Shown: piece after piece, positions 8,701-51,454 of the stretch | How the letters are laid out: every line of letters starts with the position of its first letter | How positions within the stretch are numbered: position 1 is the stretch's first letter | Source of the DNA: an uncultured Chloroflexia bacterium | GTDB lineage: Bacteria > Chloroflexota > Anaerolineae > CG2-30-64-16 | DNA: 64,000 nt | Reading direction: 5' to 3' | NCBI GenBank assembly: GCA_963810095.1 | Contig: CAWEMM010000006.1 | Span: forward strand, 320,001 to 384,000 | Program-made: the position numbers and the translations under genes | Notes under the pieces: model-generated | Told to the model about the DNA's origin: nothing | What the model saw: the letters and a program-made list of their open reading frames with translations, nothing else | Database searches by the model: none

Positions 8701-9673
8701 GGTACGTCACCCCGGCGTTGATCGGCAGCGCGGTCTCGGTTTGCAGGTCGAGCACGAAGCTCAGCGCACGTTGGATGTCCTTCTCGTAGGCGACGGGCGC
8801 GCCCCAGGTTACCAACAGGTGCACACCTTTGTCCCCGAACTGCAGCTTGAGCAGCCCGCCGTAACGATCCAGCAGCCCGAACACGATCTGCATGAAGCCG
8901 TCCAGTTGGGCCTCGGTGCGGATGCCGGGTAGGCTGACGAAGAGGTGCGTGACCTGGCGGAACTCCGCGCCGAACGCCTGGTCGAGCGGCAGGGCAGGAT
9001 AGAAGACCGCGGCGGCCTCGGCGTCCACGGGGTGAGTGACGAAAGGGCGAGCGTTCGGCAGCGGACCGTCCACCGAGATTAGCCGGAAGTGCTCGCCTGC
9101 CGGAGTGGTCGTGATCCGCTCGCCAAGCCGCGGCCGCAGGGCACGGTGCAAGACGACCTGGCCCGGACCGCCGTCATGCTCGGCCGCCACCGCACCGTCG
9201 ATGGCTGCGCCGGCGAAATAGAAGGCCGCTCGCAGCCGGTCTACCGCCTCCAAAATGCCCCAGCGCACCTCGCCCGCGCTCAGGCCGATCTCCGCGGTGA
9301 CCGTCGAATGCCCATAGGGCGTGGCGAAAATCGGGTGTGCTGCGGCCCGCTGGCAGATCGTGACTGCAGCGGCGAGGCTGCGCGCCAGGAATTCGTCGCT
9401 CTCGCCCTCCTGGCGGAAGACGGCCATGAAGCTGTCGCCGCCATGGGTTGCGACAAAACCGCCAAACTCGAACACGGCCGCGATCAGCGGCTCGAACGCC
9501 GAGCGCATCACCCCCGCAAGCGCCTCGGCGCCCGCCTGGCCGTGTTCCATGAGCGCATCTGTCATCGCCGAGAAGCCGGTGATATCGACGAACAAGCAGG
9601 CTGCCTCAAAGGCGCCGCGGCTCGCACCCGCAGACCGCTGCTGCAGGATAAACTCGGGGACAAGGCGATGCAT
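5745..9673 (-). CDS. Adenylate/guanylate cyclase (tandem class III domains) + AAA/STAND ATPase + TPR repeats; probably one gene split near 7812
   Basis: LFVDITGFSAMT/GGDS, FGDKG..GRGVNLAARFM, Walker A GEAGAGKSR, Walker B LVIEDVHW, GNPFFAEQL, YLFRHALLRDAAY, TPR-like C-terminus. ORFs 7811-9688 and 5745-7814 abut. Confidence 0.85.
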
Positions 9674-9867
9674 GTGCCAACCTCTCACATGGACTGGCCT
9701 CAGTTTACACCACTGCGTGCCGGCCGACTAAACCAGTCGCAAAATGAGCTTGCCTACACAGCGAGTCCTTGCCACCTTGCGATGAGTTCAGGCACCTGTC
9801 TGGTCTATGGCAGAGCGACATCGCTTTTGCCACTTTTCAATGCCCTTACATTCGCGGGGTATCGCCC

Positions 9868-9983
9868 AGAGGTGGCATAATAATCATAAAAGTATAAACA
9901 TCGCCAAAGAACACAGATCCCCCCGGCGGTGCCCGGCCGGCACGGTGAGATGTTTATATCTTTATGATTATTATGCCACATCT
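9868..9983. repeat. 35-bp AT-rich inverted repeat with 46-bp spacer (MITE/REP-like)
   Basis: agaggtggcataataatcataaaagtataaacatc (9868-9902) pairs with gatgtttatatctttatgattattatgccacatct (9949-9983) at 32/35 positions. Confidence 0.8.
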
Positions 9984-10058
9984 ATGGGGGGTCTCGCGAA
10001 TGCCAATACCTCCAAAACTGGCAGCTTATCATGCGCCTAACTGAATCGTACGCCGAAA

Positions 10059-10100
10059 CTGCGACCTGGAGACCTGCGAGGTCTCCGAGGCCCGCAGGTC
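10059..10100. repeat. Palindromic intergenic repeat, family B (GAGACCT(G/T)CGAGGTCT)
   Basis: ctgcgacctggagacctgcgaggtctccgagg; related copies at about 29990-30033 (inverted) and 53288-53322. Confidence 0.6.
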
Positions 10101-10120
10101 GGGCCGGCCACAAGAATCAC

Positions 10121-10156
10121 AAAGGACCAGGTTTCTGACCGAAACCTGGTCCTTTT
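10121..10156. terminator. Perfect 15-bp hairpin, probable terminator for the gene at 10214-10810
   Basis: aaaggaccaggtttc-tgacc-gaaacctggtccttt with T-runs on both strands. Confidence 0.55.
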
Positions 10157-10213
10157 CGTGCTGCGATTATGCGTGTTTGTGCTTAGCTACGCTCCTGTTC
10201 TGCCGGTTCAGCG

Positions 10214-10810
10214 TCAGGAAGACGAACCCGTCGACGGCGCGTTCGGGGTCGTCGGAGTCGTACCCGTGCCCGGCCTCGCGCCCGATCCAAAGTCGCCCCG
10301 GCCAAAGCCGCCGTGGCCGTGGCGCCCGCCACCAGGGCCGCCCAGCATTCCGAAGTCGCCGTGACCGCCGCCTACCCAACCCTTGTCGAGGCCAATCGTC
10401 CACCAATCCGCCTCTTCCTGGGTCATCGTGCCGTCCTTGACGGCCTGCGCCAGCTGCGCCTTCATTTCAGTCACGCGATCCGCATTCAGCGCGGTCTCGA
10501 TCGTCGCCAGGTCGACGCCCTTTTCGGTGGCAATCTGGCTGAGCGTCTTGCCGCCGTGCAGCGCCTCAAACAACTGCGCCGGGGTCATCCCCAGCTTTTC
10601 GGCGACGAGGTCGAACGCCGCCGAGTCGCCGCCCCGGAACCCGAAGCCGAGGCCCAACCCGTCCTGCTTGGGTTGGGTGGTGGTGGTGCCGGGCGTCGTC
10701 TGCGCGGGCGGCGTGGTCGTCTGTGCGAGCGCCGTGCCGACCGTGGCCATGCCGAGCGCAGTCACCAGTGCGATGGCGGTGAGCGTCAGCGCCAGCTTCC
10801 TTGTGATCAT
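10214..10810 (-). CDS. Secreted helical hypothetical protein with Gly-rich tail
   Basis: RBS AAGGAG, signal peptide MITRKLALTLTAIALVTALGMATVGTALA, then AEKLGMTPAQL..GKTLSQIATEKGVD..AVKDGTMTQEEAD. Confidence 0.8.
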   Translation of the reverse strand: MITRKLALTLTAIALVTALGMATVGTALAQTTTPPAQTTPGTTTTQPKQDGLGLGFGFRGGDSAAFDLVAEKLGMTPAQLFEALHGGKTLSQIATEKGVDLATIETALNADRVTEMKAQLAQAVKDGTMTQEEADWWTIGLDKGWVGGGHGDFGMLGGPGGGRHGHGGFGRGDFGSGARPGTGTTPTTPNAPSTGSSS

Positions 10811-11022
10811 GTCTTGCTCCTTCAGGTGATTGTCCGGCGGGGCATCGCCCGCCTGCACTCGTAACTCTAGCAGCCGCCTGTTTAGGTTGTGTCAAGATCA
10901 GGTCAGTTTCGCGTTGGATCGCTCCCGATCTCACAGATGCCGGTAGACTTTGCCGGAACGCGCGCCCGGTGCTATATTGACCCGACGTGCAGGGGCCGTA
11001 CAACGCGGCAGGGAGGTGCTGA

Positions 11023-11391
11023 GTGTTTCGAAGCTACGAGCATAAGTCCCAGGCGCTGCTGCCGCGAGCCCAATTCCTGCGCCGGCTGTTGGGGCACGTC
11101 CTTGTCGCTCTCGGCTTCATGACGTTTGCCCTCGCCGTCGGGATCGTCGGCTATCACGTCACCGAACACCTGGGTTGGCTCGATTCGCTCCTCAATGCCG
11201 CGATGATCCTTGGCGGCATGGGGCCGGTCGACGCCGTCAAGACCGCTGCGGGTAAACTCTTCGCCTCCTTTTACGCCCTCTTTTCCGGCGTGGTTTTTCT
11301 GGGAATTGCCGGGATCATCGTTGCGCCGATTGCGCACCGCCTGCTGCACCGGCTGCACCTGGAAATGGAGGATGAGCCCGCGAAGGGTTGA
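11023..11391 (+). CDS. Small two-TM membrane protein (K-channel-like topology, GMGP motif)
   Basis: RBS GGAGG, GTG start; TM1, WLDSLLNAAMILGGMGPV, TM2. Confidence 0.75.
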   Translation: MFRSYEHKSQALLPRAQFLRRLLGHVLVALGFMTFALAVGIVGYHVTEHLGWLDSLLNAAMILGGMGPVDAVKTAAGKLFASFYALFSGVVFLGIAGIIVAPIAHRLLHRLHLEMEDEPAKG

Positions 11392-11445
11392 CCGCGCCGG
11401 CGATCAATGCCATACTTTATTCGCAAGCTTGTGGGTGGAGACCGC

Positions 11446-11694
11446 ATGTCCCTTTCCGATTTTTTGCGCCGCGACCGGGCTCGCCGGCAGATCGCCGTGT
11501 CAGGCCAGGTGATTCCAGAGGCCGGGCGCTGCGTCCAATGCGGTATTTGTTCGTTCTATTGCCCGATCAGTATCGACGTGCGCCGTCACGCCTGGGAAGG
11601 TCAGCCCGTGATTGAAAGCCACTGCCTGACGTGCGGCGAGTGCGTCGCGCGCTGCCCGCGCGGCGTGCTCCGCTTCGAGCGAACGCAATCGTAG
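11446..11694 (+). CDS. 4Fe-4S dicluster ferredoxin-like protein
   Basis: CVQCGICSFYCP and CLTCGECVARCP motifs; GGAG RBS before ATG at 11446. Confidence 0.85.
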   Translation: MSLSDFLRRDRARRQIAVSGQVIPEAGRCVQCGICSFYCPISIDVRRHAWEGQPVIESHCLTCGECVARCPRGVLRFERTQS

Positions 11695-11735
11695 GGACGA
11701 CGCCAATCGTCGCGCCCTGGTCGCCAGGAAAGACT

Positions 11736-13043
11736 ATGCCCGCCCGCTACCTCATCATTGGCGCCGGTGTTGCCGCCATGGCGGCAGCCGAAAGCATCCG
11801 CACGGCAGACGCGGCCGGCGAGATCACGCTGCTTGCCGACGACCGGCAAGGGTACTACTCGCGCCCCGGCCTGGCCTATTACCTCACGGGCGAAGTTACC
11901 CGCCCGCTGCTCTTCCCATACAAGGACCCGGACTGGGCCCGCTTGTCCGCACGACGGGTGCTGGGACGCGCGGCCCGCCTCGATCCTGCGGCTCACCGCG
12001 TTTTCCTCGACGACGGCGCCGTCCTGCCCTACGACCGGCTGTTGCTGGCGACGGGCGCGACCGCGGTCCGGCCCGAGCTGCCCGGCGTCGACCTCCCGGA
12101 AGTCGTGAAGCTGGACAACCTGGAGGACGCGGACCGCATGATTGCGCTTGCCAAGCGCGCCCGATCGGCCGTCGTCATCGGGGGAGGCATCACCGCGCTG
12201 GAGATTGCGGAAGGACTGCGGCCCTACTGCCGGCAGATCCACTACCTCCTCCGCGGCGACCGCTACTGGAGCAACGTCCTCGATGAAGCTGAATCCCAGC
12301 TCGTCATGGGGCGGCTCAAGCATGACGGCGTCCAGCTGCACACGCGCACCGAAGCCGCGGCGGTGCAGGGCGCGGGTGGGCATGTCACGGGCGTGCTCAC
12401 GATGGAGGGTGAGCGGATACCCTGCGAATTGGTTGCCTTCGCCATCGGGGTCATGCCGCGCACGGAACTGGCCCGGTTTGCCCGCCTGGCCGTCGACCGG
12501 GGCATCCTCGTCGACGACCGCCTGGCAACCAGCGCGGCCGACATCTTTGCGGCCGGCGACGTTGCCCAGGTATACGACCCTCACACGGGCCGGGCGATCC
12601 TGGACACGCTCTGGAATGTTGCCCGGGGGCAAGGCGAGGTCGCGGGGCGCAACATGGCGGGTGCGAACGTGCCCTACGTCAAGCCCGTCGCGCTCAACGT
12701 CACCCGGCTGGCAGGCATCACGACGACCATCATCGGCGCCGTGGGCGCCGGGAAGGACGCGGACCTGGTTGGCATCGCCCGCGGCGACAGCGAGGCGTGG
12801 CGGGCGCTGGGCGACGCGGTGACCGCGGAAAACCACCACGAGATCAATCGCCTGCGTCTGCTGATCGGACCCACCACCATCGTTGGCGCGGTGCTGATGG
12901 GCGACCAGGCATTGTCGCGGCCCCTGCAACGGCTGATCGCCCAATCCATCGACATCACCCCGATTCGCGGCCGCTTGCTGGCGCCCGGTGCGGCGCTGGG
13001 CAAGATCATTACGGAGTTCGAGCATGCAATCCCTCGCCCGTGA
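11736..13043 (+). CDS. FAD-dependent pyridine nucleotide-disulfide oxidoreductase (NirB/rubredoxin-reductase-like)
   Basis: IIGAGVAAMAAA, YDRLLLATGA, VVIGGGITALE, TSAADIFAAGDVAQ. Confidence 0.9.
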   Translation: MPARYLIIGAGVAAMAAAESIRTADAAGEITLLADDRQGYYSRPGLAYYLTGEVTRPLLFPYKDPDWARLSARRVLGRAARLDPAAHRVFLDDGAVLPYDRLLLATGATAVRPELPGVDLPEVVKLDNLEDADRMIALAKRARSAVVIGGGITALEIAEGLRPYCRQIHYLLRGDRYWSNVLDEAESQLVMGRLKHDGVQLHTRTEAAAVQGAGGHVTGVLTMEGERIPCELVAFAIGVMPRTELARFARLAVDRGILVDDRLATSAADIFAAGDVAQVYDPHTGRAILDTLWNVARGQGEVAGRNMAGANVPYVKPVALNVTRLAGITTTIIGAVGAGKDADLVGIARGDSEAWRALGDAVTAENHHEINRLRLLIGPTTIVGAVLMGDQALSRPLQRLIAQSIDITPIRGRLLAPGAALGKIITEFEHAIPRP

Positions 13044-13698
13044 GCGGCCGAAGCCGGTGGAGCTGTGGTGGGCGGCGGGGATCATGGTCGCGATCACAGC
13101 CCTCTATCTCCTGCTGACCCAGGTCGCAGGCGCCAGCCCGCGCTCGAGCGGCCTGTTAGGCCATGGCATCGGGGTGGTCGGGTTCATCCTGATGCTGATG
13201 ACCGAAACGCTCTACTCGCTGCGCAAGCGCTCGCGGCGGGCGCGCTGGGGCCGCACGGCCAGTTGGCTGCGGTTCCACATCGTGACGGGAATCGTGGGGC
13301 CGTACATGGTCCTGCTGCACGCCGCATGGCGCTACAACGGCCTGGCCGGACTGGTCATGTTGATGACCGTGATCGTGGTGATCAGCGGGTTTGTCGGCCG
13401 CTACATCTACACGCGCATACCGCGCAATGCGGACGGCCTGATGTTGGAAGCCGCCGAATTGCAGGCACAGCTCGACTCCGCCGGGGGTTTGCTCGCGGAA
13501 GGCGGAGCCGGGGCACGCGACGCGGGCCGGATTGCCGCACGCCAGAAGCAGCTCGAACGACAGGCGACCATGGTGACAAGCACCCGCAAGGCCATGGGAA
13601 CGTGGACCTCGGTTCATATTCCGCTGGGCGTTGCGCTCTTCACCGCCGCGTTCCTCCACATCCTCGCGGCCATTTACTTCGCTACGCTGCTGCACTGA
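13024..13698 (+). CDS. His-rich integral membrane protein (cytochrome b/ferric-reductase-like TM domain)
   Basis: About 5 TM segments, with His in GHGIG, WLRFHIVTG, LLHAA, VHIPL and FLHIL. Overlaps the upstream stop. Confidence 0.75.
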   Translation: MQSLARERPKPVELWWAAGIMVAITALYLLLTQVAGASPRSSGLLGHGIGVVGFILMLMTETLYSLRKRSRRARWGRTASWLRFHIVTGIVGPYMVLLHAAWRYNGLAGLVMLMTVIVVISGFVGRYIYTRIPRNADGLMLEAAELQAQLDSAGGLLAEGGAGARDAGRIAARQKQLERQATMVTSTRKAMGTWTSVHIPLGVALFTAAFLHILAAIYFATLLH

Positions 13699-13755
13699 CC
13701 GACAGTGTGGTGTGATGCGGGCAAGCTGCCTGCGTCACACCGCATGGGAGACTCA

Positions 13756-15415
13756 ATGAACCGACGGCTTGGCTGTATGACGGGGGGCGGCCTGCTCGCC
13801 GCAGCCCTCACGATCGCCATCGTGCTCGTGTTCTACGTCGCGCGGGGCGGCGCCATGTTCAGCCCCGGCCCGCTCAACGCGCAGCCCGGCGAAGAGGCGC
13901 TGGGTGGTGTGACGGCCCACGCGGAAATTGGGGGCCAGTGCGCGGCATGCCACACGGCGCCGTGGTCAAGCGCAACCCTCGCGGATCGCTGCCAGGCCTG
14001 TCATGCTTCCGTCGCAAACGAACTGGTAAGCAACCAGGGACTCCACGCCCAACTCAGAGGACAGGCCGGCGCCTTCGATTGTCGGGGCTGCCACAGCGAG
14101 CACAAGGGCCCGACGGCCGCGCTGACCCAGATCGACCCCGCGGCCTTCCCCCACGCTGCCACAGGTTACGACCTGGCCGGCCATCGGGCAGATGACCGGC
14201 GGACGGCCCTTTGCGTGCGGCGACTGCCACACGACCGGCGTCACCCAGTTCGCCGTGGCAACCTGCCAGGATTGTCACCGGCAGATGGACGCGGCGTACA
14301 TGACGGCGCACGTCGCCGACTTCGGCGAGGCGTGTCTCGGCTGCCACGACGGGGTTGACCGCTACAGCCGCAAGCGCTTCGACCACAACGCGCTGTCCTT
14401 CGCCCTCGATGGTGAGCACACGGACCTGGCTTGCAGCAAGTGTCATGCCGGCGCGGCCTCGCCAGGCGACCTGCAAGCAACGAAGTCGGGATGCGTGGAC
14501 TGCCACCGGGCGGACGACGCACACAAGGGCCAGTTCGGGACCGACTGCGCGGGCTGCCACAACACGGCTGCCTGGCCCGACGCCACCTTCGACCACGCCA
14601 AGACCGCCTTCCCGCTGACCGGCAAGCACGAGGGCGTGAAGTGCCAGGACTGCCACCGGGACGGCCGTTTCAAGGGCACAAGCGCCCAATGCGTCGACTG
14701 CCACCGGGCGGACGACGCCCACAAGGGCCAGTTCGGGACCGACTGCGCGGGCTGCCACAACACGAGTGCCTGGCCCGACGCCACCTTCGACCATGCCAAG
14801 ACCGCCTTCCCGCTGACCGGCAAGCACCAGGGCGTGAAGTGCCAGGACTGCCACCGGGACGGCCAGTTCAAGGGCACGAGCTCCCAATGCGTCGACTGCC
14901 ACCGGGCGGACGACGCCCACAAGGGCCAGTTCGGGACGGACTGCGCGGGCTGCCACAACACGGCTGCCTGGCCCGACGCCACCTTCGACCATGCCAAGAC
15001 CGCCTTCCCGCTGACCGGCAAGCACCAGGGCGTTAAGTGCCAGGACTGCCACCGGGACGGCCAGTTCAAGGGAACTCCTCAGCAGTGCGCTGCCTGCCAC
15101 GAGGACCCGGTCTTCCATCGCGGCGCGTTCGGAACGCAGTGCCAGGACTGCCACACGACGGCCCGTTGGCAGCCCGCCACCTTCAACCAGCGCCACACTT
15201 TCCCGATCGATCACGGTGAAGGCGGCGCCTCATCCTGTCGCACATGCCACCCCGATGCCGTAAAAGCCTATACCTGTTACGGCTGCCACGAGCACACGCC
15301 GGCCGAGACGATTGCGAGGCATGCGGAAGAGGTGCAGGGCGATATCACGGACTGCGTGAGGTGCCACCCAACCGGACAGGAAGAGGGTGAGGGCCACGGG
15401 GGCGGCGGCGACTGA
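13756..15415 (+). CDS. Membrane-anchored multiheme cytochrome c, 21 CXXCH motifs (frameshift near 14190)
   Basis: N-terminal TM plus FSPGPL. Three CXXCH in ORF 13705-14358 and 18 in ORF 14192-15415. Confidence 0.9.
14492..15085 (+). repeat. 3 x 198-bp near-identical coding tandem repeat (66-aa, three-heme module)
   Basis: CVDCH codons start at 14492, 14690 and 14888; the next CAACH starts at 15086. Confidence 0.95.
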
Positions 15416-15511
15416 GAGAAGCGCGGCCAGCAAGCGGGCAGCGCAGCAAGGCGGCAGACAAACAAATGGGCCGGGAAGCGTCTTGCTTCCCGACCCTCTG
15501 CGACGGGTCTC

Positions 15512-16059
15512 TTATCGACTCTTCCCCGCCTGTGACTGGCCGGCCTTCGCCGGCGGGGCTTCACCTTGCGCCTGGGGCGGCGGAGCGCCTGCCGGCGGTC
15601 GGGGATGCCGGGTCGGCCGGCGCTGCGCTGCGACCTCGCGCGCGCAGCGACCAACTCCGGCGGCGCCTCGAAATAGATCGTCACGCCTTCGAGCGGCCCA
15701 CCCATTTTCCACTTCTGTGCCAATTCCCAGCTGATGTCGGCAATCCAGCCCCGCTTGCGCAGGTTATTGCGGTGCTTGGCCTCCGCGCAATCTACAACCA
15801 TCAAGGGGCCGACGATCTCGCCGTTGGGGTGACGGATCCAGACCTTCTCGCCGATGTGCTCGGGGTCAATGAGCGCAATTGCGTCCACACACTCCGCACA
15901 CTCGGGGACGTGGCCCTTCCAGACCCGCCAGTTCCACACTTTTGTCATCAGGCTGCTCTCTCCCGTTTGCCTTGGGGGAGCATAGTAAGTGACTTCGCCG
16001 GTGATTGGCTTCGAGACCGAAAGACTTACCGTCAGGAGAACTGCCGCGATCAGCGTCAA
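15512..16059 (-). CDS. Secreted hypothetical protein, possibly RlpA-like double-psi beta-barrel (3' end uncertain)
   Basis: RBS GGGAGG then TTG; hydrophobic N-terminus; GEVTYYAP..IGEKVWI..GPLMVVDCA..IADISWELA. A frameshift near 15640 probably leads to the stop at 15512. Confidence 0.6.
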
Positions 16060-16212
16060 ATTTTCCTCCCTTGGAGCTTTTCGCAGGGAGCGACCTGCAG
16101 TGAGAGGGTCGCCAACTGCGAGGATAAGGAAGAAAGACGCTCTTTTTTGTGATTTGTTCCGCTGGAATGGAGAGTTCAGTGGCATCAGCATAGCCGAATG
16201 CAATCATGCTTT

Positions 16213-17793
16213 CTAGGGCAGTTCTAGCGCCGCGGCAGATGCCACCTCCTTCGCCAGTGTCCCCGAATGTATCAGCTCGGCCAGCGACTCGATATCCGGT
16301 GTAGTCGGGCGATCGTGCTCGAGAAATGCAGCCACACGGCGGACTGCGGCGTAGGCCGCCGCACTGCCCACCCCCAGACGGTCCGGCCCGTGCTCGCGCA
16401 GGTCCACCGCCTGTGCGGCGGTCAGCAGCTCGATGGCGAGCACCCGGCGTACGTTGTCCAGGATTTCCAGCGTGTGCCGTGCCGCATTGGCGCCCATGCT
16501 GACGTGGTCCTCCTGGTTGGCGCAGGACGGGATGGAGTCGACGCTGTCCGGATGCGCCAGCGTCTTGTTGTCGGAGACGAGGGCGGCCGCCGTGTACTGC
16601 ACCATCATCAGGCCGCCGTCAAGCCCGCTCTCGCGTACCAGCATGGCCGGCAGCCCGGCATTGAGCTCGGGCGTGAGGAGGCGGAAGATTCTGCGTTCGG
16701 CAATGTCGGCCACCTCGGCCATGGTGATGCCCAACAGATCGAGCCAGAGCGCGGGGCCCTGGCCGTGGAAGTTCCCGCCCGAAATGGCCCGGTAAGTGCC
16801 GTCGGGGTTCGGGAAGATGAGGGGGTTGTCGGTCGCCGCGTTAATCGCCGCACTGAAACGGCCGCGCACAAACGCAACCGCGTCGAGCGCGGGGCCGAGC
16901 ACCTGGGGTGTGCAGCGGAGGCTGTAGGCATCCTGCACGCGGCCGCTCATCGAGTCGACCAGCCGGCTCCCTCGGGTCAGCGCACGCATGTTAGCGGCCA
17001 CCCGCTGCTGCCCGGGCTGCCCGCTCACCGCATGCAGGTCTGGATCAAACGCAGCGGAGAGACCGGCGAGTGCTTCCAGCGAGAGCGACGCGCCGATTTG
17101 CGCGTGGGCCAGCAGGTTTTCGGCGTCGAAGGTCGCGAGCGCCCCGCACGCGGCCATAAAGTCGATGCCGTTTGAGAGCGCCAGGCCCTCCTTGGCCAGG
17201 AGCACGGGCCGTTCGATGCCCGCCCGGCGCATCGCCTCGGCCCCGTCCAGCAGCTGGCCGCCGTACCTGGCCTTCCCGCCGTAAGCACCCTGGCCCGCCG
17301 CGTCTTCAGCGCCGTCACGCGAGAGAACGACCGCAATGTGGGCCAAGGGCGCCAGGTCGCCGCTGGCCCCAAGCGAGCCCTTTGCCGGAACGACGGGCGT
17401 GACGCCCGCGTTGAGCATGTCGATCAGCGTCTGGGCGATCAACGGTCGCACGCCCGAGTTGCCCTTGGCGAGCATGTTGGCACGGATCACCATCATTGCC
17501 CGCACGACTTCATCCGGCAGCGCCTCGCCCACCCCCACGACGCACAGCACGACGAGGTTGCGCGACAACTGGCGTGCCTGGGCCGCGCTGATCTGCCGGG
17601 TAGCCAGCGAGCCGAAACCGGTGTTGACGCCGTAGATGATGCTTCCCTCGCCGTCGATGGCATCCACGACCCACTGGTGGCTGCGCTGCATCCGGGCGCA
17701 AACCTCGCCGTCGAGGGGGGCAACCTTCTCGCCGAAGCGGGCGATGGCCACAACCTGCTCGATCGTCAGGCGGCTGCCAGTGAACTCAATCAT
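16213..17793 (-). CDS. hutH: MIO-dependent ammonia-lyase, HutH-like (atypical specificity loop)
   Basis: YGVNTGFG, GSLGASGDLAPLAH (ASG/MIO), QDAYSLRC, GGNFHG, NQEDHVSM. Confidence 0.85.
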   Translation of the reverse strand: MIEFTGSRLTIEQVVAIARFGEKVAPLDGEVCARMQRSHQWVVDAIDGEGSIIYGVNTGFGSLATRQISAAQARQLSRNLVVLCVVGVGEALPDEVVRAMMVIRANMLAKGNSGVRPLIAQTLIDMLNAGVTPVVPAKGSLGASGDLAPLAHIAVVLSRDGAEDAAGQGAYGGKARYGGQLLDGAEAMRRAGIERPVLLAKEGLALSNGIDFMAACGALATFDAENLLAHAQIGASLSLEALAGLSAAFDPDLHAVSGQPGQQRVAANMRALTRGSRLVDSMSGRVQDAYSLRCTPQVLGPALDAVAFVRGRFSAAINAATDNPLIFPNPDGTYRAISGGNFHGQGPALWLDLLGITMAEVADIAERRIFRLLTPELNAGLPAMLVRESGLDGGLMMVQYTAAALVSDNKTLAHPDSVDSIPSCANQEDHVSMGANAARHTLEILDNVRRVLAIELLTAAQAVDLREHGPDRLGVGSAAAYAAVRRVAAFLEHDRPTTPDIESLAELIHSGTLAKEVASAAALELP

Positions 17794-19059
17794 AAGAATC
17801 CTCCCCCCTGCGTTGGACAGGGTCACGCTCAACCACCCGCCCCCGCTTGACCATCCGGTCGACCGCGTTGTTGCCGAGACGGTAAATCACGTCTTCAAAC
17901 GTCGGCAGACGCCAGATCTGGATATCGGCAAGCTGACCGGGGGCGAGCGCACCCCGGTCGGTCAGTCCCAGCGCCCGTGCGCCGCCGACTGTGCAGGCCA
18001 GCAGCGCCTCCTCGGCAGAAAAGCGATACAGCCGGCAGGCAAGCTGCATGACGAGCTGCAGCGACTCGGTCCAGCATGCGGGGCAGAGGTCGGTGGCCAG
18101 GGCCAGCGTCATGCCCTGCGCCATCAGCATCCGGGCATCGAACGGACGGCGATGCGCGACCGCCCAGTCGAGGGCCGGCATGACGACCCCGACCACGCCC
18201 GCCTCGGCCAGGCGGCGCGCCGCATCCGGGGTGGTGTAGTTCAGGTGATCCGCCGATACCGCGCGCAGCTCTGCTGCCAGGGCTGCGCCGCCGATATCCG
18301 AGTACGCGTCGGCGTGCACTTTGGGCTTGAGCCCTGCCGCACGCCCCGCCTCGAGGATCCGGCGCGACTCGGCCACGGTGTAGTAGCCGTCGTCCAGATA
18401 GACGTCGCAGAACTCTGCGAGCCCTTCGCGTCGCGACCTCAGGAATCATTTCGTGCAAGATGGAGTCGATATAACGCTCGCGGGGCACGCCGGGCGGGAA
18501 GTCATGTGCGGCGAGGAACGTTGGCACGACGTCCGCCGGTCCCGCTTGCCCAAGACGCCTGGCGACCCGAAGCATCCGCAGCTCGTCGGCAACGGTCAGC
18601 CCGTAGCCACTCTTCACTTCGACAGTGGTCGTGCCATGGCGGAACATGCTCTCCAGCCGGGCTGCCGCGCCGGCGAACAACTCGTCTTCCGAGGCGTTTC
18701 GGGTCATCCCGACGGTGGCGAGGATGCCCGCAGGGATGCCCAGCTCGCGCGACCTCGGCCGCGCTGCGCGTCATGCGAGCGGCGTACTCCCCGACCCGCG
18801 AGCCGCCGAACACAAGGTGGGTGTGGCTGTCGACGAAGCCGGGTGCGACGATACATCCAGACGCGTCAAGCACTGCGGCCGGCGCGACGTCAACCTGGCG
18901 TGGGACGTCGTCCTTCGTTCCGACGGCGACGATTTGCTCGCCGGCTATCGCAACCATGCCGTCCGGAATGCGGCCAGCCAAGTCATCTCCCGAGGGCACA
19001 CAGGTGAGCACCAGGCCGCCCTGGATCACAAGGCTTGCGGAAGGCAGCGACACGTTCAA
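17786..19059 (-). CDS. hutI: Imidazolonepropionase-like amidohydrolase (frameshifted)
   Basis: PGFVDSHTHLVFGG, HGTTTVEVKSGYGL, KVHAD, SADHL, ALATD across three frames. Confidence 0.85.
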
Positions 19060-20819
19060 CTCTGGGCCGGCGCCTTCTCGGCCGTGTGCGCCCCCACCGG
19101 GTGGGGCCCCCGGCGGTCGACCGTGCCGTCCTCGGGGCCGAAGGTTGCCGTTGGGCTCCACCAGAGCGGCACCCGAATGCTGTCGGTCGTCAGCGGCCCC
19201 TTGCCCTGGGCCACCTGCCGCGCCAGTTCGTAACCCGCCTGGGCGTGGCGAATTACGCCGATCCCCGAGTCGACCGTCAGAGCCGCCTCCAGCCGCAGGT
19301 CGGCTTCCTCGCTACCGTCCGCGATCATGGTGACGCCCGTGTGCACCGCCTCGCCCATGGAATAGTTCGCCTGGATGGCGATCAGGTCGCACATCGCGGA
19401 CGCATTGAGCAGCGCGTTGAGGTAGGGCCAGTCCGAGATGAGGTCGCCGCCGTCGAGCATCTTTTCCGACTCGAAGGTCGGGTTGACGATCGAGCCGGAA
19501 TCGAGGTTATCGCGCGAGAAACCGACCGGTCCCTTGACTTCGCCGTCGCGGATGAGCCGGTTGACGGCCAATCCAAACGCCTTTCGCTCGCCGAAGCCAA
19601 GATAGCACACGCGGGCGGGCAGGCCCTCGATAGGGAGAATGCGGCGAGCGAGATTGATCCACTTGACGGTCGTCGCGTCGTGCGGGAACATCTCGAGCAC
19701 CAGGTCGTCGAGCCGTGCCAGGTCCGCGGCCTCGCCCGAGAGGCAAGTCCAGCGGAACGGGCCCCGGCCGACGGTGAAGAGCGGCCGGATGTAGGCGGCG
19801 ACGAATCCGGGGATGCGCATGGCGGTTTCTTCGGGCATACCCGCGTCACGACATTCCTTGCGGATGCTCGTGCCGTATTCGAAGACCTGGACGCCCTGGT
19901 CATGGAAGCCGAGCATGGCGGTCAGCTGTCGCTTCATCGACTCGCGCGCCCGGTCCAGGTAAGCCAGCCGGTCCGTGCGGCGCGCGGCCTCGGCTTCTGC
20001 CACGGAACAACCGGCCGCAATGTAGGAAATCGGATCATGACAGGGGCACATCTCGGTGACGATGTCCGGCTTCCACCCCAACTCGAGCGCCCGGGGGAAG
20101 AGATCGGCCGCGTTCCCGTACAAGCCAATGCTCAGTGCCCGGCCCTCAGCCTTGGCCTTCTCGGCCAGTTCGATGCCCTCTTCCAGCGAGTGCACCTGCA
20201 CATCCAGGAACTTCTTCGCAATGCGCACCGGGATGATGTCGGGGTTTGCATCGACCACCAGGCAGACGCCGCCGTGCATGGTCATCGCCCGCGGCTGGTT
20301 GGCGCCCATGCCGCCGAGCCCCGCAGTGAAGAGCGTGCGCCCCACAAGTGACCCGCCGAAGTGCTGCTCGCCGATCGCGCCCAGCGTCTCGAACGTCCCC
20401 TGGATCACGCCCTGCGTGCCGATGTACTCCCAGGGCGCGGCCGTGTACTGCGCAAACATGGTCAGGTTCTTGTCCTGCAGCTCGTAGAAAACCGGCCAGG
20501 TGGCCTTCATGATGTTCGTGTTCGCCATGACGACCCGGGGCGCCAGGCGGTGGGTCTTGAAGACCGCGACGGGCATGCCGGACTGGATCGCGAGCGTTTC
20601 GTCGTTTTCGAGGTTGAGGAGCGCGTCGACGATGGCGTGATACGACTCCCAGTTGCGCGCACACTTGCCAATGCCGCCGTAGATCACCAGCCGCTCCGGC
20701 TTCTCGGCGTTCTCCATGTTGTTCTCCAACATGCGGAGCAGCGACTCCTGTTTCCAACCCTTGCAGCGGAGCGTGGGGCCGCGCTGCGCCCGAACGGAGT
20801 AAAGGATCTCGTTTTTCAC
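19056..20819 (-). CDS. hutU: Urocanate hydratase family protein (divergent)
   Basis: LRCKGWKQE, LVIYGGIGKCARNW, YIGTQGVIQGT, AGLGGMG, GRGPFRW, GLPARVC, GVIRHAQAGY. Confidence 0.9.
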   Translation of the reverse strand: MKNEILYSVRAQRGPTLRCKGWKQESLLRMLENNMENAEKPERLVIYGGIGKCARNWESYHAIVDALLNLENDETLAIQSGMPVAVFKTHRLAPRVVMANTNIMKATWPVFYELQDKNLTMFAQYTAAPWEYIGTQGVIQGTFETLGAIGEQHFGGSLVGRTLFTAGLGGMGANQPRAMTMHGGVCLVVDANPDIIPVRIAKKFLDVQVHSLEEGIELAEKAKAEGRALSIGLYGNAADLFPRALELGWKPDIVTEMCPCHDPISYIAAGCSVAEAEAARRTDRLAYLDRARESMKRQLTAMLGFHDQGVQVFEYGTSIRKECRDAGMPEETAMRIPGFVAAYIRPLFTVGRGPFRWTCLSGEAADLARLDDLVLEMFPHDATTVKWINLARRILPIEGLPARVCYLGFGERKAFGLAVNRLIRDGEVKGPVGFSRDNLDSGSIVNPTFESEKMLDGGDLISDWPYLNALLNASAMCDLIAIQANYSMGEAVHTGVTMIADGSEEADLRLEAALTVDSGIGVIRHAQAGYELARQVAQGKGPLTTDSIRVPLWWSPTATFGPEDGTVDRRGPHPVGAHTAEKAPAQS

Positions 20820-20942
20820 GGGTGACTCCTGGTGGGGCTCTTGCCATGGAGGCCACAGACGGCCCTGAGTTACTCAGAGAGCACGAGAATCAGGGCCGAG
20901 GTTGCTCGCCGCGCGCCCGCGGCGCCCTCTGTGGCTGATCTG

Positions 20943-21836
20943 TCAATCGATGAGCGCGAGCTCGATGATCTGTTCCGTTGAGAACTCGTGCACCTGCAGA
21001 TAATAGCGCGCCACCTCTTCCAGCGCGCCGAGCGGAACCGGGCCGACGAGCTCGGTGCCGGCAATGGCAACGCCATAGCGAGCGGCCTCGGCCCGGATAG
21101 TCTCGAGCACGCGCGGAATAGGTGTCTTGGTGTAGTTGATGAGGTTCATCGAGACCTGGACCAGGTCTTTCCCCTCCAGCGCGAGGCCCATCGCCCGCAC
21201 GTACCTGTAGCCCCCGCTGACATGGCGCACTGCCTTGGCAATCCTGTCCGCGATGCTGACGTCGGTCGTGCGGAGGTTAACGTTGAAGGCAATCAGCGGG
21301 AAGCGGGCGCCGGTCACGAGTGCGCCCGACCGGGGGTTGAACGTTGCGGGCCCTTCGTCGGGCGCCCACTCGGGCTGCTGCAGCTTCGCCTCGAGCGCCT
21401 CGTACTCACCCTTGCGGATGTCGGGAAGGCTCTTGCGCTCGGGTCGCGTCGCCGCGTCCTCATAGTAATAGACCGGGACGCCAAGCTGGCCGACGAAGCG
21501 ACCCAACTGCCGGGCGATATCCACCGCCTCGGCCGGCTCCACGCCGCGCACGGGGATGAAGCCCGCGACGTCGACGGCACCCTGCCGGGGATGGCTCCCG
21601 TGATGCTCGCGCATGTCGATGAGCTCGTAGGCTTTCACGACAAGCCGCTGGGTCGCCTCCAGCACGTCCTCGGGCTCGCCCAGGTAAGTGAACACCGAGC
21701 GGTTGTGGTCGGGGTCGCTCGAGTAGTCGATGAGACGCACGCCGGCCACACTCCGCACCGCGTCGGCCACCTGCTCGACCACGTCTGGTTTGCGGCCCTC
21801 GCTGATGTTTGGCTCGCACAGGAGGATCCTCTTCAC
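20943..21836 (-). CDS. ftcD: Glutamate formiminotransferase (stand-alone FT domain)
   Basis: PNISEGR, DPDHNRSVFT, HPRQGAVDV, IRKGEYE, VQVSMNL; AAGGAG RBS with GTG start. Confidence 0.9.
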   Translation of the reverse strand: MKRILLCEPNISEGRKPDVVEQVADAVRSVAGVRLIDYSSDPDHNRSVFTYLGEPEDVLEATQRLVVKAYELIDMREHHGSHPRQGAVDVAGFIPVRGVEPAEAVDIARQLGRFVGQLGVPVYYYEDAATRPERKSLPDIRKGEYEALEAKLQQPEWAPDEGPATFNPRSGALVTGARFPLIAFNVNLRTTDVSIADRIAKAVRHVSGGYRYVRAMGLALEGKDLVQVSMNLINYTKTPIPRVLETIRAEAARYGVAIAGTELVGPVPLGALEEVARYYLQVHEFSTEQIIELALID

Positions 21837-22065
21837 TTGAGCTCCTTTCATCGCTGGTCGGGCGCCGCGTCACGAAGATCCCGCACGTGCGCGTTGCGGC
21901 TCACCGCGCTCATTGGAGTGGGCGACCGGCGCTTCACGCCGCTCGGCGAGTCACCGGCCGCGCCACTGCAATGCTGATGGCACTTGCCAGTTCTGTCAAG
22001 GAGGAACGGGTCGACCTGGCCACCCCGAGGGAGCACTCGGTCGCGCTCGCCGGCACCGTTTCCGC

Positions 22066-24086
22066 TTACGGCCGGGGGGCCATCGTCAGCGTGGCAAGCT
22101 GGCCCTGCGCGCCATCCTCCACCACCGCGACCAGCACATCGCCCGGGCGGACGACCGTCTCGCCCCGCGGGATGAAGATACGCCCCCGGCGCCGGATGGA
22201 CGCGATCAGGCAATCGGGCGGCCAGGGAATTTCGCGCATCTCGTGGTCCGCAGCGAGTGCGCCCGGCTGCACGGTAACCTCTACCGTGTGCGCGCCCGAG
22301 TACACACCCAACCGCACCTGCTCCTGCGTGTGCCGGGCAACGGCACGGCGGGTCGCGGCCAGGTCGTAGGCCCGGATAATGTCAGCCCGGCTCAGAATCC
22401 CCAGCAATTCGGCCGGATCGCCGCGGTTCACGACAGGGAGCCGGCCCACATCCCGGACGCTCATCCGCCGCAACGCCGCACCGATGGACTCATCTGCAAA
22501 GGCTGTCAGCAACTCACGCGTGCAGATCGCGGCCACGTGCGTGTCAAGCCCTGCGCCGCGCTCGTGGGCGCGCTGCAGGTCGCTCAGCGTCACGACGCCA
22601 ACCAGGCGGCCGCCGGTGTCGACCACGGGCATTCCGTGATGGTGCGTCAGTGCGAAGGCATGGTCCGCCTCCGCCAGTGTGGCAGATTCGACCAGGGTGT
22701 GCGCGACGGGCGACATGGCCTCGCGAACTGTCAGCGAATCCAACACGTCCACATCGCGACCGCGCTGCAGGCGAATGCCGTGCCGCGCCAACCCGACCAT
22801 GTAGACCGAGTCCGGACTGATGCGCCTCGAGATTGCAAGGCTGACTGCCACTGCGAAAAGCAAGGGTAGGATGATGCGGTAGTCATGGGTCATCTCGAAC
22901 AACAGGAGGACCGCAGTCAGCGGTGCGTGCACTGCGCCGGCCAAGACCGAAGCCATTCCCACCATGGCGAACGCGGGCGCCTGGATGCCGAGCCCCGGAA
23001 AGATGAATGCCGCGCCCCGCCGAAGACATAGCCAAGGGTGGCGCCGATGAACAAGGCCGGCGCGAACACGCCGCCGGGAAACCCCCCGCCGATGCTGACC
23101 GGCGTCAGGATCAGCTTGGCAAGCAGCAAGGCAAAGACGGTGGTTACCGCGATACCCCCGCCGCCGTTGAGCAGTCCGCCGATTACATCATAGCCAACGC
23201 CCAGCACGCCGGGCAGGAAGATGCCGACGATGCCGACGATGAGGCCGGCGATCGCGGGCTTGACCCAGACCGGGGTATGCACGCGCTCGCGAAACACGTC
23301 GCCCGAGAAGTAGAGCAGCTTCACATATAGTGCGGCGACGGGCCCGGCCACCAGGCCGAGCACGAGGTAAAGGGGCAGCTCCAGCACCGATTGAAAGGGA
23401 TAGGGCGGGACGGCAAAGGCGGGCTCGGGCCCCGACACCGCCTGTGTCAGAACGGCCGACGCGACGGCGGCGAGTGTGATAATGCCGAACGCGGCGCTAC
23501 TGATCTCGCCCAGTATGACCTCGAGGGCGAAGAAGAGGCCGGCAATGGGAGCATTGAATGCAGCTGCGATGCCTGCTGCTGCACCCGCGGCGACGAGCGC
23601 ACGCACTCGCTCGTCGGACAGGTGCAGCAACTGGCCAAACATGGAACCGAGGCTCGAGCCGACCTGTACCGAGGGGTCTTCCGGACCGACCGAGGCGCCG
23701 GTCCCGATTGCGAGGGCCGCGCCGGCAACCTTGTAGGGCGTGCGGGTATAGCGCAGCCGGCCTCCGGCCAACGCGGTGACCTCGATGATGCCGGCTACGC
23801 CGTGGTGACGCTCGTGGCCCACAAAGCGGTGCATCAGGAGCCCGACAAGAAGGCCCCCGAAGGCGGGGATGAGGGCCAGCGCCCATGGACCGATATGACT
23901 GAGCGCCGCGCCAATCTCCTGGTACGCCGCCGTGTAGACAAGCTCGATCAGCCGCTTGAAGAGCCAGACGCCGCCCGCGGCCAGCAACCCGACCAAGACC
24001 GCCGCACCACCGAACACCGCGGACTCGGGTGGCTGGTGCACGTCGAGCCAACGCCGAACTGCGCCCCACATCCCAAACCCCCACAC
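22066..24086 (-). CDS. ClC-family chloride channel/antiporter with CBS pair and TrkA-C domain (frameshift near 23010)
   Basis: GASVGPEDPSVQ, AAAFNAPIAG, GGVFAPALFIG, HAPLTAVLLLFEMT, CBS domains, RRGRIFIPRGET. Confidence 0.9.
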
Positions 24087-37817: not shown

Positions 37818-40563
<2,746 letters not shown>

Positions 40564-49227: not shown

Positions 49228-50307
49228 ATGTTGGGCAAGAAACGCATTCTGACAGGCGACCGGCCCACCGGCCGCTTGCACCTGGGGCACTATGTGGGCA
49301 GCCTGCGCAACCGCGTGCGGCTGCAGGACGAGTACGAGTGCTTCTTCATCATCGCCGACCTGCACATGCTGACGACCAAGAACGCGCCCGCTGAGATCAA
49401 CGAGATTGCGGACAACGCCCGGGGTATGGTGCTCGACTACGTCAGCCGCCGGCATCGACCCGGCGAAGTCGACCATTTTCCTCCAGTCGGCCATCCACGA
49501 GACCTACGAGCTGGCGCTGCTGCTGGGCAACCTCGTCACCGTGCCGCGGCTGGCGCGCGTGCCCAGCATCAAGGACATGGCACGCGCGGCCATGATCGAC
49601 GTGGAGGCGATCCCGTTCGGCCTGCTCGGCTACCCCGTGCTCCAGGCCGCCGACATCCTGCTGCCCCGCGCCAACCTGGTGCCCGTGGGCAAGGACAACC
49701 AGGCCCACGTCGAGATTACCCGGGAGATCGCCCGCCGCTTCAACAACCTCTACGGCGAAGTCTTCCCCATCCCCGACGACCTCGTCGAGGGCGACACGCT
49801 GCCCGGCACGGACGGCCAGGCGAAGATGAGCAAGTCGATCGGCAACGCCATCTTCCTGAACGACGACGCAGCCACCGTGCGGAAGAAGGTGCATAGCATG
49901 TACACCGACCCCAACCGCATCCGGGCCGACATCCCCGGCACGGTCGAAGGCAACCCTGTCTTCACCTACCTGGACCACTTCGACCCGGATAAGCCGCTTG
50001 ATCGAAGAACTCAAGACCCGTTACCGGGCCGGAACGGTCGGCGACGTGGAGGTCAAGGAGCGGCTGGCGCAGTCGCTGAACGCGTTCCTCGAGCCAATGC
50101 GCGAGCGGGCCGCGCAGTACGCGGGCCAGAGCGGCCTGGTCGACGAGATCATCTTCCAGGGCACGATGCGCTACCGCGAGATCGCCGGCGAGACGATGCG
50201 CGAGGTGAAGAAGGCAATGGGGCTGTCGAGCACGCTTCAACCGCATCGCGCGGAAGGCCGAGGAACGGCAGAAGAAGCTGGCGAAGCAGGGCGCGGGCAG
50301 CCGCTGA
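49228..50307 (+). CDS. trpS: Tryptophanyl-tRNA synthetase (frameshifted)
   Basis: [47 protein letters not shown]. Confidence 0.95.
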
Positions 50308-50309
50308 CC

Positions 50310-51454
50310 GTGCTGGCCGGCCGCGCAACCCCTGCCGGCACTGCCCGCTTCGCGGACCGCTTCGGCGGCCAGCGCGCTGCCCCGTCGCAAACGGCGCAGC
50401 CCAGCCGGGCGAACACTTTCGCCCGCTGGATGACCTGCGTATCTCGTCGATAGGCTTCGGCCTGGCGTCGGGCGATCCGACCGACGAGATCGACGCGCGC
50501 TATCAGCAGGCGGTCGCGGCGGCGGTGGCAGGTGGCTGCAACCACTTCGACGTGGCGCTCAGCTACCGGGGGCAGCGCAGCGAGGTCGCGCTCGGCCGCG
50601 CGCTGGCCGAGCTGGTCGCCGCGGGCGCGCTGCAGCGCGACGAGGTGATCGTCGCCAGCAAGGCCGGCTTCATCCCCTACCCGCCGGACGAGGACGACAC
50701 CGCCCGTTACGTCTACGAGAACTTCATTGCAGCAGGCATCGCCGAACCTGACGATTTTGCGGGCGGCATCCACTGCATGGCGCCGAATTTCCTGAGCCAA
50801 CAGATCGCCTGGAGCCTGCGCAACCTCGGGCTCCGGCCGGTCGACATCTACTATCTCCAGAATCCGGAGACGCAGCTGCCGTTTGCGGACCGCGACCACG
50901 TTTCGGCGCCGGCTGCAACTGGCGTTTGCCAGGCTGGAAGAGGAAGTGGCTGCCGGGCCGCATCGGTTGTTACGGCGTCGCGACGTGGGAGGGCTTCCGC
51001 CTCGCACCGGTGACCAAGACCTACATGAGCCTGGAGGTGCTGGAGCGCCTGGTCGTCGAGGTCGCAGGCGTGAACCACCACCTGCGCGTGGTACAATTGC
51101 CGCATCAACACCGGCATGCTCGAAGCCTTGACGCTGCGCAACCAGCCCGTGCGGAACAGCATCTTGCCGTTCCTCTCGGCCGCGCGCGACCTGGGTTTCG
51201 TCGTCGTAGCCAGCGCGGCGCTGGGGCAGGGCCAGAGCGCACGGCCGCCTGGCCGAAGCACTGATTGACGGCTTTCGCGGGCTCGACACGCGCCGACCAG
51301 CGCAGCCTGCAGTTGGTGCGCTCGCTCCCGGGCGTCGACCTCGGCCCTGTTCGGCAGCACCGACGAACAGCACGTGCGCGAGAACCTGGCTTTGGCCGCC
51401 GAGCCGCCGGACCCGGCGACTGCGCTGCGGCTGGGGCACATGAAAGGGCGTTAG
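50310..51454 (+). CDS. Aldo/keto reductase family protein (frameshifted)
   Basis: [56 protein letters not shown]. Confidence 0.8.

Follow-up and report, generated by a model that had tools for sequence, protein, structure and literature searches.

We describe a four-gene operon of the histidine utilization (Hut) type in a 64,000-nucleotide stretch of DNA from an uncultured Chloroflexia bacterium (GenBank assembly GCA_963810095.1, contig CAWEMM010000006.1, positions 320,001 to 384,000), hereafter the window, which has a G+C content of 66%. On its minus strand, between 16213 and 21851, four tightly packed and co-directional genes encode a glutamate formimidoyltransferase (ftcD), a urocanase-family hydratase paralogue (URO2), an imidazolonepropionase paralogue (hutI2) and an aromatic amino acid ammonia-lyase (HAL2) (Table 1). 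The cluster comprises a distinct, selected and co-inherited trio of enzymes together with an ordinary FtcD. Throughout, G000 is the source genome of the window, other G numbers are other genomes, L numbers are loci and P numbers are library proteins.

The genes are closely coupled, with 2 nucleotides between URO2 and hutI2 and an 8-nucleotide overlap of hutI2 and HAL2, and therefore fit a single operon in the gene order given by a preliminary description of this DNA. That description had reported a Hut-like operon with intact catalytic cores, and the profile matches and motifs bear it out: GASGD, which forms the 4-methylidene-imidazole-5-one (MIO) cofactor, GLGGMG and DSHTH are all retained. 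Its end coordinate of 21836 falls 15 bases short of the ftcD ATG at 21851; the place was otherwise right. The proposed start of hutI2 is the GTG that follows the URO2 stop. HAL2 likely starts at the ATG that gives the overlap with the hutI2 stop, within an open frame that extends to 17832. FtcD scores well above the TIGR02024 cut-off, carries both formiminotransferase subdomains and by these measures is an ordinary member of its family.

Table 1. Genes of the operon and frame changes in hutI2 (window coordinates)
Feature	Position	Strand	Basis and remarks
ftcD, glutamate formimidoyltransferase, first operon gene	20943..21851	-	TIGR02024, 413.9 bits (cut-off 221.25); Pfam FTCD_N and FTCD
URO2, urocanase-family NAD-dependent hydratase paralogue with altered pocket	19056..20819	-	TIGR01228, 629.6 bits (cut-off 375)
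hutI2, imidazolonepropionase paralogue, in three frames in this assembly	17786..19053	-	Three TIGR01224 pieces
HAL2, MIO (ASG) aromatic amino acid ammonia-lyase, Leu-Cys for Ser-His	16213..17793	-	TIGR01225, 553.7 bits (cut-off 539.15); PF00221
hutI2, first frame change	18744	-	Surplus of one base or deficit of two, between ..AEVAR and LGIPAGI..; three-frame translation against intact orthologue
hutI2, second frame change	18431	-	One extra base; a 262-nucleotide X3 contig lacks it

Altered pockets in three consecutive enzymes

URO2 was aligned to the solved urocanases 1x87, 2fkn and 1uwk. All four HutU pocket motifs are altered, also relative to the hutU of G000 itself and to representatives of the long-form urocanases: YGQMTAGSW reads FAQYTAAPW, DQTSAHD reads EMCPCHD, RDHLD..SPNRETE reads RDNLD..NPTFESE, and HHGGGVGMG is replaced by Q, a two-residue deletion and ANYSMG. 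Residues were counted over 191 clade sequences that were not de-duplicated (the window protein, 69 from loci and 121 database proteins). Y125, P129, N438, Q483 and N485 each occur in 191 of 191, E256 and F449 in 190, and C258 and C260, the cysteines of EMCPCHD, in 189. The changes in URO2, like those in HAL2 and HutI, are not chance drift, since they are fixed clade-wide.

URO2 passes the HutU model TIGR01228, on which the canonical hutU of G000 reaches 943.4 bits, and this cut-off is loose, since the S-methyl thiourocanate hydratase P0125 also scores 644 on it. URO2 falls under the cut-offs of NF058530 for thiourocanate hydratase (588.8 against 930) and NF058531 for S-methyl thiourocanate hydratase (627.5 against 880), and by these NCBIfam cut-offs it is neither enzyme. 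Against PDB entries it scores 593 bits to 1x87, an ordinary urocanase, versus 517 to 7NED and 492 to 8Q9U, and so is no closer to the latter two. Searches of the ESM Atlas returned generic urocanase clusters only.

Phylogeny was inferred by a quick maximum likelihood run of IQ-TREE on 46 sequences, 23 of them URO2. All 23 fall on one side of a branch with a Shimodaira-Hasegawa-like approximate likelihood ratio test (SH-aLRT) support of 100 and a stem of 0.97 changes per site, and the internal branches of the clade are very short. A group supported at 97 unites URO2 with P0125 (894.2 bits on NF058531), the 7NED-like protein P0128 and a small clade represented by P0124; the canonical hutU sequences stand apart, and URO2 does not nest among them. 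The tree proposed in the preliminary description thus sets the hydratase outside the clade of canonical urocanases, in a clade of its own grouped with S-methyl thiourocanate hydratase. The same four segments that deviate in URO2 also vary among urocanase paralogues of different known substrate, and for this reason may be read as evidence that these segments shape the imidazole pocket.

In HAL2, alignment to the solved histidine ammonia-lyases (HALs) 7tqr and 6v6h confirmed what had been reported for the specificity loop: the Ser-His selectivity dyad of HutH is absent and reads Leu-Cys, and NGT(S/Q)F reads NGIDF (NGID for NGTQ in the earlier wording). The MIO triplet Ala-Ser-Gly is present, and HAL2 passes TIGR01225 marginally, compared with 640.7 bits for the canonical copy in G000. 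The pattern was extended to 49 lyases adjacent to URO2, after removal of seven duplicates and exclusion of wrongly picked open reading frames (ORFs) in L119, L121, L132 and L135. MIO is kept and Cys or Asp occupies the position of the HAL His in 38 of the 49 (dyads LC in 13, AC in 9, SC in 7, AD in 5 and SD in 4). Ser-His is retained in seven, all from Pseudomonas or Burkholderia, and the MIO triplet is missing from four, all from Actinomycetota. Among 19 HAL homologues of the same genomes that do not lie beside URO2, 18 have Ser-His and one has Asn-His.

On the lyase phylogeny, which was built with FastTree only, the Cys/Asp state requires at least three independent changes: in a large clade of Chloroflexota, Desulfobacterota and Spirochaetota, in a clade of Actinomycetota and Syntrophomonadaceae, and in one Oscillospiraceae protein. 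Given these changes and the Ser-His of nearly all non-adjacent HALs, the ring-contact His has been lost repeatedly, and only in URO2-linked lyases. This is the strongest argument for an altered substrate. The dyad position is described as a substrate-selectivity switch of MIO enzymes (PMC9002059).

Lyase homologues lacking MIO (GQA-DL or GQS-DL) occur in three actinomycetotal loci beside or near URO2, adjoining short-chain dehydrogenases (L046, 2367-3821 and 11972-13414; L053, 11953-13449; L065, 2968-4797). These proteins resemble trimethylammonia-lyases, which would suggest a betaine precursor.

HutI was compared with 2bb0, 2oof and 2puz using the intact orthologue from L025. In that protein HADEI reads H(A/V)DAY, DFNPGSS reads DLCPG-CW and is one residue shorter, and GGGI reads IPAGI. 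The Glu of the HxxE motif reportedly has a catalytic role in HutI of Bacillus subtilis. None of the 55 HutI proteins adjacent to URO2 has the Glu or Gln of H-x-D-E (Ala in 54, Cys in one), and none has GGGI, for which IPxGI-type loops stand instead. All five comparison HutI proteins, encoded beside ordinary urocanases or elsewhere, keep both H-A-D-E/Q and GGGI. With this alignment, every motif change listed for the three enzymes in the preliminary description was found to be present.

Distribution, gene neighborhoods and coexistence with canonical hut genes

Five of seven congeners carry a URO2 orthologue, as do three other genera of the family and one other family of the class, at 76-94% identity. 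No other sequence in those 41 genomes exceeds 52% identity, which leaves a clean gap. In a large protein collection the best 120 clusters were all at least 78% identical, and the named ones were called 'urocanate hydratase' and came from Anaerolineales or Chloroflexi. A library clustered at 50% identity contained fragments and a single full-length URO2 representative (P0121, 59%); ordinary urocanases came next, at no more than 49%. Contigs from one genome per species held 382 stretches with a URO2 relative, and the best 80 of these were used to describe gene neighborhoods. They belong to Chloroflexota, Thermodesulfobacteriota and other 'delta' lineages, Actinomycetota, Bacillota and Spirochaetota, and at 64-65% identity also to Pseudomonas, Burkholderia and Alphaproteobacteria. 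A search with the Pseudomonas URO2 added Paraburkholderia, Janthinobacterium, Rhizobium and Mesorhizobium.

Neither the URO2 tree nor that of the linked lyases follows phylum boundaries: Spirochaetota (L045, L050) fall inside Chloroflexota, and Actinomycetota (L079, L082) group with Syntrophomonadaceae. The whole cluster seems to be transferred horizontally.

To describe neighborhoods, 1,070 ORFs of the 80 loci, many of which end at contig ends, were clustered, mapped and named by Pfam. A lyase was found in 54 loci, ftcD in 39, an FTCD_C cyclodeaminase in 32, a GntR/UTRA regulator in 24, an MttB-family methyltransferase in 17, a Dpp/Opp-type binding protein in 12, a polar amino acid binding protein in 11, an M20 peptidase family (cluster 12) in 8, AcnX in 8 and a LarA-like protein in 7. 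The most common order is hutC, cyclodeaminase, ftcD, URO2, hutI2, HAL2. The coordinated change in three enzymes put forward earlier is thereby upheld, as the trio is co-inherited in many phyla and each member carries clade-wide changes at ring contacts. In L069 a hutU-hutI pair and a URO2-hutI2 pair lie a few kilobases apart. Pseudomonadota loci contain an amino acid ABC (ATP-binding cassette) transporter and M20 peptidases and lack FtcD, and their URO2 subclade deviates at about 10 otherwise fixed URO2 positions; this subclade may have its own substrate, and the family may cover more than one.

Three further arrangements were observed among the loci. In L033 (862-7190), PfkB, MttB, a URO-D-type (MtaA-like) methyltransferase, an AsnC regulator and a corrinoid protein stand directly upstream of cyclodeaminase-ftcD-URO2-hutI2-HAL2. 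The window has a PfkB and URO-D pair (768-2738) about 14 kb from the cluster, perhaps a remnant of such an arrangement. The alphaproteobacterial loci L061, L063 and L068 (about 7000-19000) each hold four to five urocanase-family genes, namely an S-methyl-thiourocanate-hydratase-like gene, URO2 and two or three canonical-like genes. They also encode a Liv-type transporter and amidohydrolases (HutI, HutF-like and others), and give the impression of a 'super-locus' for histidine derivatives. Genes for aconitase-X (large and swivel subunits) and a LarA-like racemase recur by URO2 in L057, L071, L074, L078, L083, L089, L100 and L105, often with TRAP or Liv-type transporters.

The preliminary description had proposed a search for a separate canonical hut set, and profile scores located one in G000. 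Canonical hutU and hutH share the contig of the cluster, about 1.4 Mb away from it, and the canonical hutI (439.7 bits) lies elsewhere. The URO2 cluster is thus a paralogue set, distinct from the regular Hut system of G000. FtcD was matched once in this genome, which is 88.5% complete, namely by the copy in the cluster. The only FTCD_C cyclodeaminase match is on contig 11; both hutC and the cyclodeaminase are missing at the window locus. No hutG or hutF above cut-off was found in G000, and FtcD is probably shared by the canonical and variant routes.

Between the canonical hutU and hutH (G000:C6:1754676-1759523; L108, 6650-11536) lies a gene split into two ORFs, presumably glutamine-synthetase-like from a look at its N terminus only. 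The ORF that follows the canonical hutU we take, by eye only, to encode an M32 carboxypeptidase.

Fifty URO2-bearing genomes, mostly metagenome-assembled genomes (MAGs), were also searched with TIGR01228. An ordinary urocanase accompanies URO2 in 42 of them, in 23 as a short canonical form (879-1024 bits) and in 19 as a long form whose open frames span about 670-790 residues (400-457 bits). Library representatives of the long form keep the canonical motifs GQMTAG, DQTS, RD(H/Q)xD and GGGVG. Seven genomes have URO2 only and one is ambiguous.

Candidate substrate and pathway

We favor, with moderate confidence, the interpretation that the operon is a functional Hut paralogue for a ring-modified histidine with unsubstituted C2, for which an N-methylhistidine (tele or pros) would be the most likely substrate. 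Its parts differ in strength: that the substrate is something other than L-histidine is quite probable, and that it is one of the N-methylhistidines is a tentative choice drawn from the motifs. The preliminary description had proposed a substituted imidazole handled through a folate-dependent formiminotransferase; paralogy, the separate clade and co-inheritance support this, and the substrate itself is an inferred element of it. A histidine skeleton would be kept, because all three enzymes retain what they need to handle the carboxylate and amine, and C2 would be unsubstituted, because FtcD and cyclodeaminase need a formimino carbon. The ring would then differ, most simply by an N-methyl group, because a polar partner of a ring nitrogen is replaced by a smaller or non-polar residue, at HAL His83 and at the HxxE Glu of HutI, both of which are reportedly ring-nitrogen partners in the solved structures. 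Substrates substituted at C2 (2-thio or diphthamide-like) were considered and set aside, as the conserved FtcD and cyclodeaminase would imply a transferable formimino carbon.

In the proposed pathway, HAL2 would remove ammonia to give a substituted urocanate, which URO2, with tightly bound NAD+ as electrophile, would hydrate to a substituted imidazolone-propionate. HutI2 would open the ring, and FtcD would transfer the (N-substituted) formimino group to tetrahydrofolate (THF) with release of glutamate. The cyclodeaminase encoded elsewhere in the genome would then produce methenyl-THF and ammonia or methylamine. For a tele-methylated ring, the glutamate part presented to FtcD would be unchanged and methylamine would be released at the cyclodeaminase step; a pros-methylated ring would instead yield N-methylglutamate. 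The tele reading is slightly favored because the single FtcD of G000 probably serves both routes.

A broader version of this interpretation is possible, though we rate it less likely than not. It would be a widespread folate-coupled route of URO2, HAL2, HutI2 and FtcD in anaerobic scavengers (Chloroflexota, Desulfobacterota, Actinomycetota, Bacillota and Spirochaetota) and some soil Pseudomonadota, assimilating ring-N-methylated histidine. The methylated nitrogen would leave as methylamine via the cyclodeaminase or as N-methylglutamate, and histidine-derived betaines, demethylated by corrinoid (MttB) enzymes or cleaved by MIO-less lyases, would supply the route in many lineages.

The closest familiar system is canonical Hut with an FtcD branch, which shares with the cluster four or five protein families, the order of the chemistry, the cofactor motifs (MIO ASG, GLGGMG, HxH) and, in relatives of the URO2 cluster, an operon with a GntR/UTRA regulator. 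It differs in that the three ring-handling enzymes of the cluster have clade-wide pocket changes, URO2 lies outside the canonical clade, and the set coexists with canonical genes in G000 and with an ordinary urocanase in most other carriers. Judged by pocket motifs, the enzymes would not be classed as HutU, HutH or HutI, nor URO2 by its clade, whereas URO2 and HAL2 pass the score cut-offs.

Thiourocanate and S-methyl thiourocanate hydratases are likewise urocanase paralogues for ring-substituted urocanates; P0125 falls in the same well-supported super-clade as URO2, and the same four segments set them off from HutU. Their motifs are different: P0125 has DQTEP-D and HEMD, and the 7NED-like P0128 has HSGGGGY, versus EMCPCHD, QANYSMG and NPTFESE in URO2; 7NED itself differs from URO2 as well. 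The partners of URO2 are a MIO lyase and FtcD, whereas the ergothioneine route uses a MIO-less ergothionase and desulfurizing steps.

The nearest idea in print is a pathway in a soil Bacillus, in which HutH-, HutU- and HutI-like paralogues reportedly degrade N-tau-methylhistidine (Beliaeva, Atac and Seebeck, ACS Chem Biol 2022). The logic is the same as that proposed here, and the pathway is said to end in hydrolysis to glutamate and N-methylformamide, not in folate transfer. Neither the best 120 matches of each of the two URO2-clade searches nor the 80 loci include a Bacillus name. With P0124, the representative of the sister clade, as query, a tiny clade and then archaeal urocanases were recovered but not the Bacillus enzyme, and no NCBIfam model named for N-tau-methylurocanate hydratase gave a match. 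If the Bacillus hydratase proves to lie in the URO2 clade, what is described here adds a folate-linked member to a known type of pathway; if it lies outside, a further specificity is indicated.

A Hut-related set tuned to a ring-N-methylated histidine derivative is also described in a preprint on Shewanella oneidensis (10.64898/2026.04.22.720169). There, SO_3299-SO_3301 comprise an N-pi-methyl histidine betaine lyase and a predicted N-pi-methylurocanate reductase, and a non-polar residue in place of a polar ring-nitrogen ligand is given as a mark of N-methyl specificity in the N-pi-methylurocanate-specific reductase. The Shewanella system is periplasmic and respiratory with a lyase that lacks MIO, in contrast to the cytoplasmic, assimilatory URO2 cluster with its MIO lyase, hydratase, amidohydrolase and FtcD.

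No paper that dealt with the URO2 clade, treated thiourocanate or methylurocanate hydratases as enzymes, or connected urocanase with MttB came up in a full-text literature search. Judged from that search and from NCBIfam and PDB content only, the clade has not been described. Few offshoots of the universal histidine pathway are, to our knowledge, established, and the clade would add a folate-linked one. It is common, as the 382 stretches counted above and the more than 190 sequences gathered show, and all named ones are annotated as plain urocanate hydratase. If the broader interpretation is true, hundreds of clade genes labeled 'urocanate hydratase', 'HutH' and 'HutI' are mis-annotated. A substrate that is a methylhistidine or histidine betaine derivative would mean anaerobic recycling of modified histidines from proteins, dipeptides or thiol-histidine antioxidants, and a new natural origin for methylamine or C1 units. 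The convergent switch from His to Cys or Asp in the lyases is a natural experiment in MIO-enzyme specificity. Culturable carriers exist in Pseudomonas, Burkholderia and Desulforhopalus, which makes the question directly testable.

Alternative explanations and the frame changes in hutI2

Several observations weigh against a dedicated N-methylhistidine route, and they are collected here with the explanations that they favor. The substrate is a guess, because neither the literature search nor NCBIfam and PDB content yielded a characterized member of the URO2 clade. With a single FtcD and neither hutG nor hutF above cut-off in G000, the two routes, canonical and variant, may run together at a single formimino-glutamate enzyme. 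In G005 (87% complete) a canonical hutU, 45% identical to URO2, follows hutI2 directly in the same operon (L025, 6797-8449), and a single hutI was found in that genome. Pseudomonas and Burkholderia pair URO2 with their Ser-His lyase and a different amidohydrolase of 507 residues.

The MttB genes beside URO2, up to three in tandem in L055, and the MIO-less lyases beside or near it in L046, L053 and L065 point to quaternary (betaine-type) precursors in some lineages, which a plain methylhistidine model leaves unexplained. Instead of plain methylhistidine, the physiological input could accordingly be a quaternary, N-alpha-methylated histidine derivative such as a histidine betaine (hercynine-like, or hercynine with a ring methyl group), fed in by MttB or MIO-less trimethylammonia-lyases. 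Corrinoid proteins in L033 and L079, the URO-D-type methyltransferase in L033 and a BCCT betaine transporter next to URO2 in L105 are in keeping with this, and so is the Shewanella lyase, which is specific for N-pi-methyl histidine betaine, a compound of unknown natural source according to that preprint (10.64898/2026.04.22.720169). Some MttB loci, such as L082 and L105, have no lyase at all. We consider this explanation unlikely. In the window cluster and in most Chloroflexota loci the lyase is of the MIO type and no MttB adjoins it, the nine MttB matches in G000 are all on contigs other than the cluster's, and the presence of MttB may reflect no more than common 'methylated-amine islands' that also contain AcnX, LarA and transporter genes. 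It also overlaps the N-methylhistidine reading, with which it shares the ring modification and from which it differs in the precursor alone.

Alternatively, the cluster could be an isofunctional, divergent L-histidine pathway, for example one adapted to anaerobes or differently regulated, with motif changes that reflect drift or adaptation unrelated to substrate. The seven genomes with URO2 only are where the set might serve L-histidine, and in G014, which is 95% complete, canonical hutU, hutH and hutI were not found and only the variant set is present. All three enzymes pass, or would pass, the NCBIfam HutU, HutH and HutI cut-offs, a HutC-type regulator is present in the 24 loci counted above, and the sole FtcD of G000 is in the cluster. 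Such a pathway is nonetheless improbable when set against the ordinary urocanase kept by most carriers, the paired canonical and variant hutU-hutI genes of L069, the convergent loss of the ring-contact His in URO2-linked lyases alone, the absence of the HxxE Glu from every linked HutI, and the long stem and very short internal branches of the URO2 clade. The URO2-only genomes are mostly incomplete MAGs, and all seven may simply be incomplete.

In this assembly hutI2 is read in three different frames. Its TIGR01224 match falls into pieces at 2-75 (52.6 bits), 76-179 (111.5) and 175-377 (188.9), which the general NCBIfam scan placed at 2-75, 85-179 and 197-377, whereas intact orthologues score 369-394 on this model (cut-off 298.15); the orthologues are single-frame in L025, L026, L027 and the named loci. 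The amidohydrolase changes given in the preliminary description (HADAY, TDLCP.. and an altered Y..I..GGGI segment) hold, but the triple-frame reading had been missed, and the Y..I..GGGI segment spans the first frame change.

Both frame changes are most likely assembly errors. Other window genes are split in the same manner, with consecutive Pfam coordinates in neighboring ORFs (PfkB, 768-1708; a ClC channel, 22069-24086), and pyruvate phosphate dikinase is in three pieces (37821-40563); further likely split or fused cases are URO-D (1727-2738) and a tRNA-synthetase/aldo-keto-reductase chimera (49406-51010). The same genes are similarly fragmented in the related few-contig assemblies G001 and G002. 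A short-read-derived X3 contig, 97% identical with 7 mismatches, lacks exactly the base at 18431 and keeps the frame. These three lines of evidence carry the conclusion, and because the assembly seems to have many indel errors, a single frameshift is weak evidence for a pseudogene. Contigs from sequencing runs leave 18618-18779 uncovered, so that the first frame change lies outside this comparison and a true pseudogene in this strain is conceivable; none of the runs contained more than 22% of the sampled words. That the cluster is decaying here, with hutI2 a true pseudogene and the operon non-working, is very improbable: two frame changes within one 1.27-kb gene, neither in a long homopolymer, and the loss from the locus of the hutC and cyclodeaminase present in relatives speak for it, but the neighboring ftcD, URO2 and HAL2 are intact and highly conserved, and the split genes of the window, the parallel fragmentation in G001 and G002 and the near-identical contig without the extra base speak against it.

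Just downstream of the operon, on the opposite (plus) strand at 14192-15412, the window also encodes a multihaem cytochrome of 407 residues, which is composed of near-identical repeats of about 60 residues with CxxCH and matches Pfam Cytochrome_C7 and c3.

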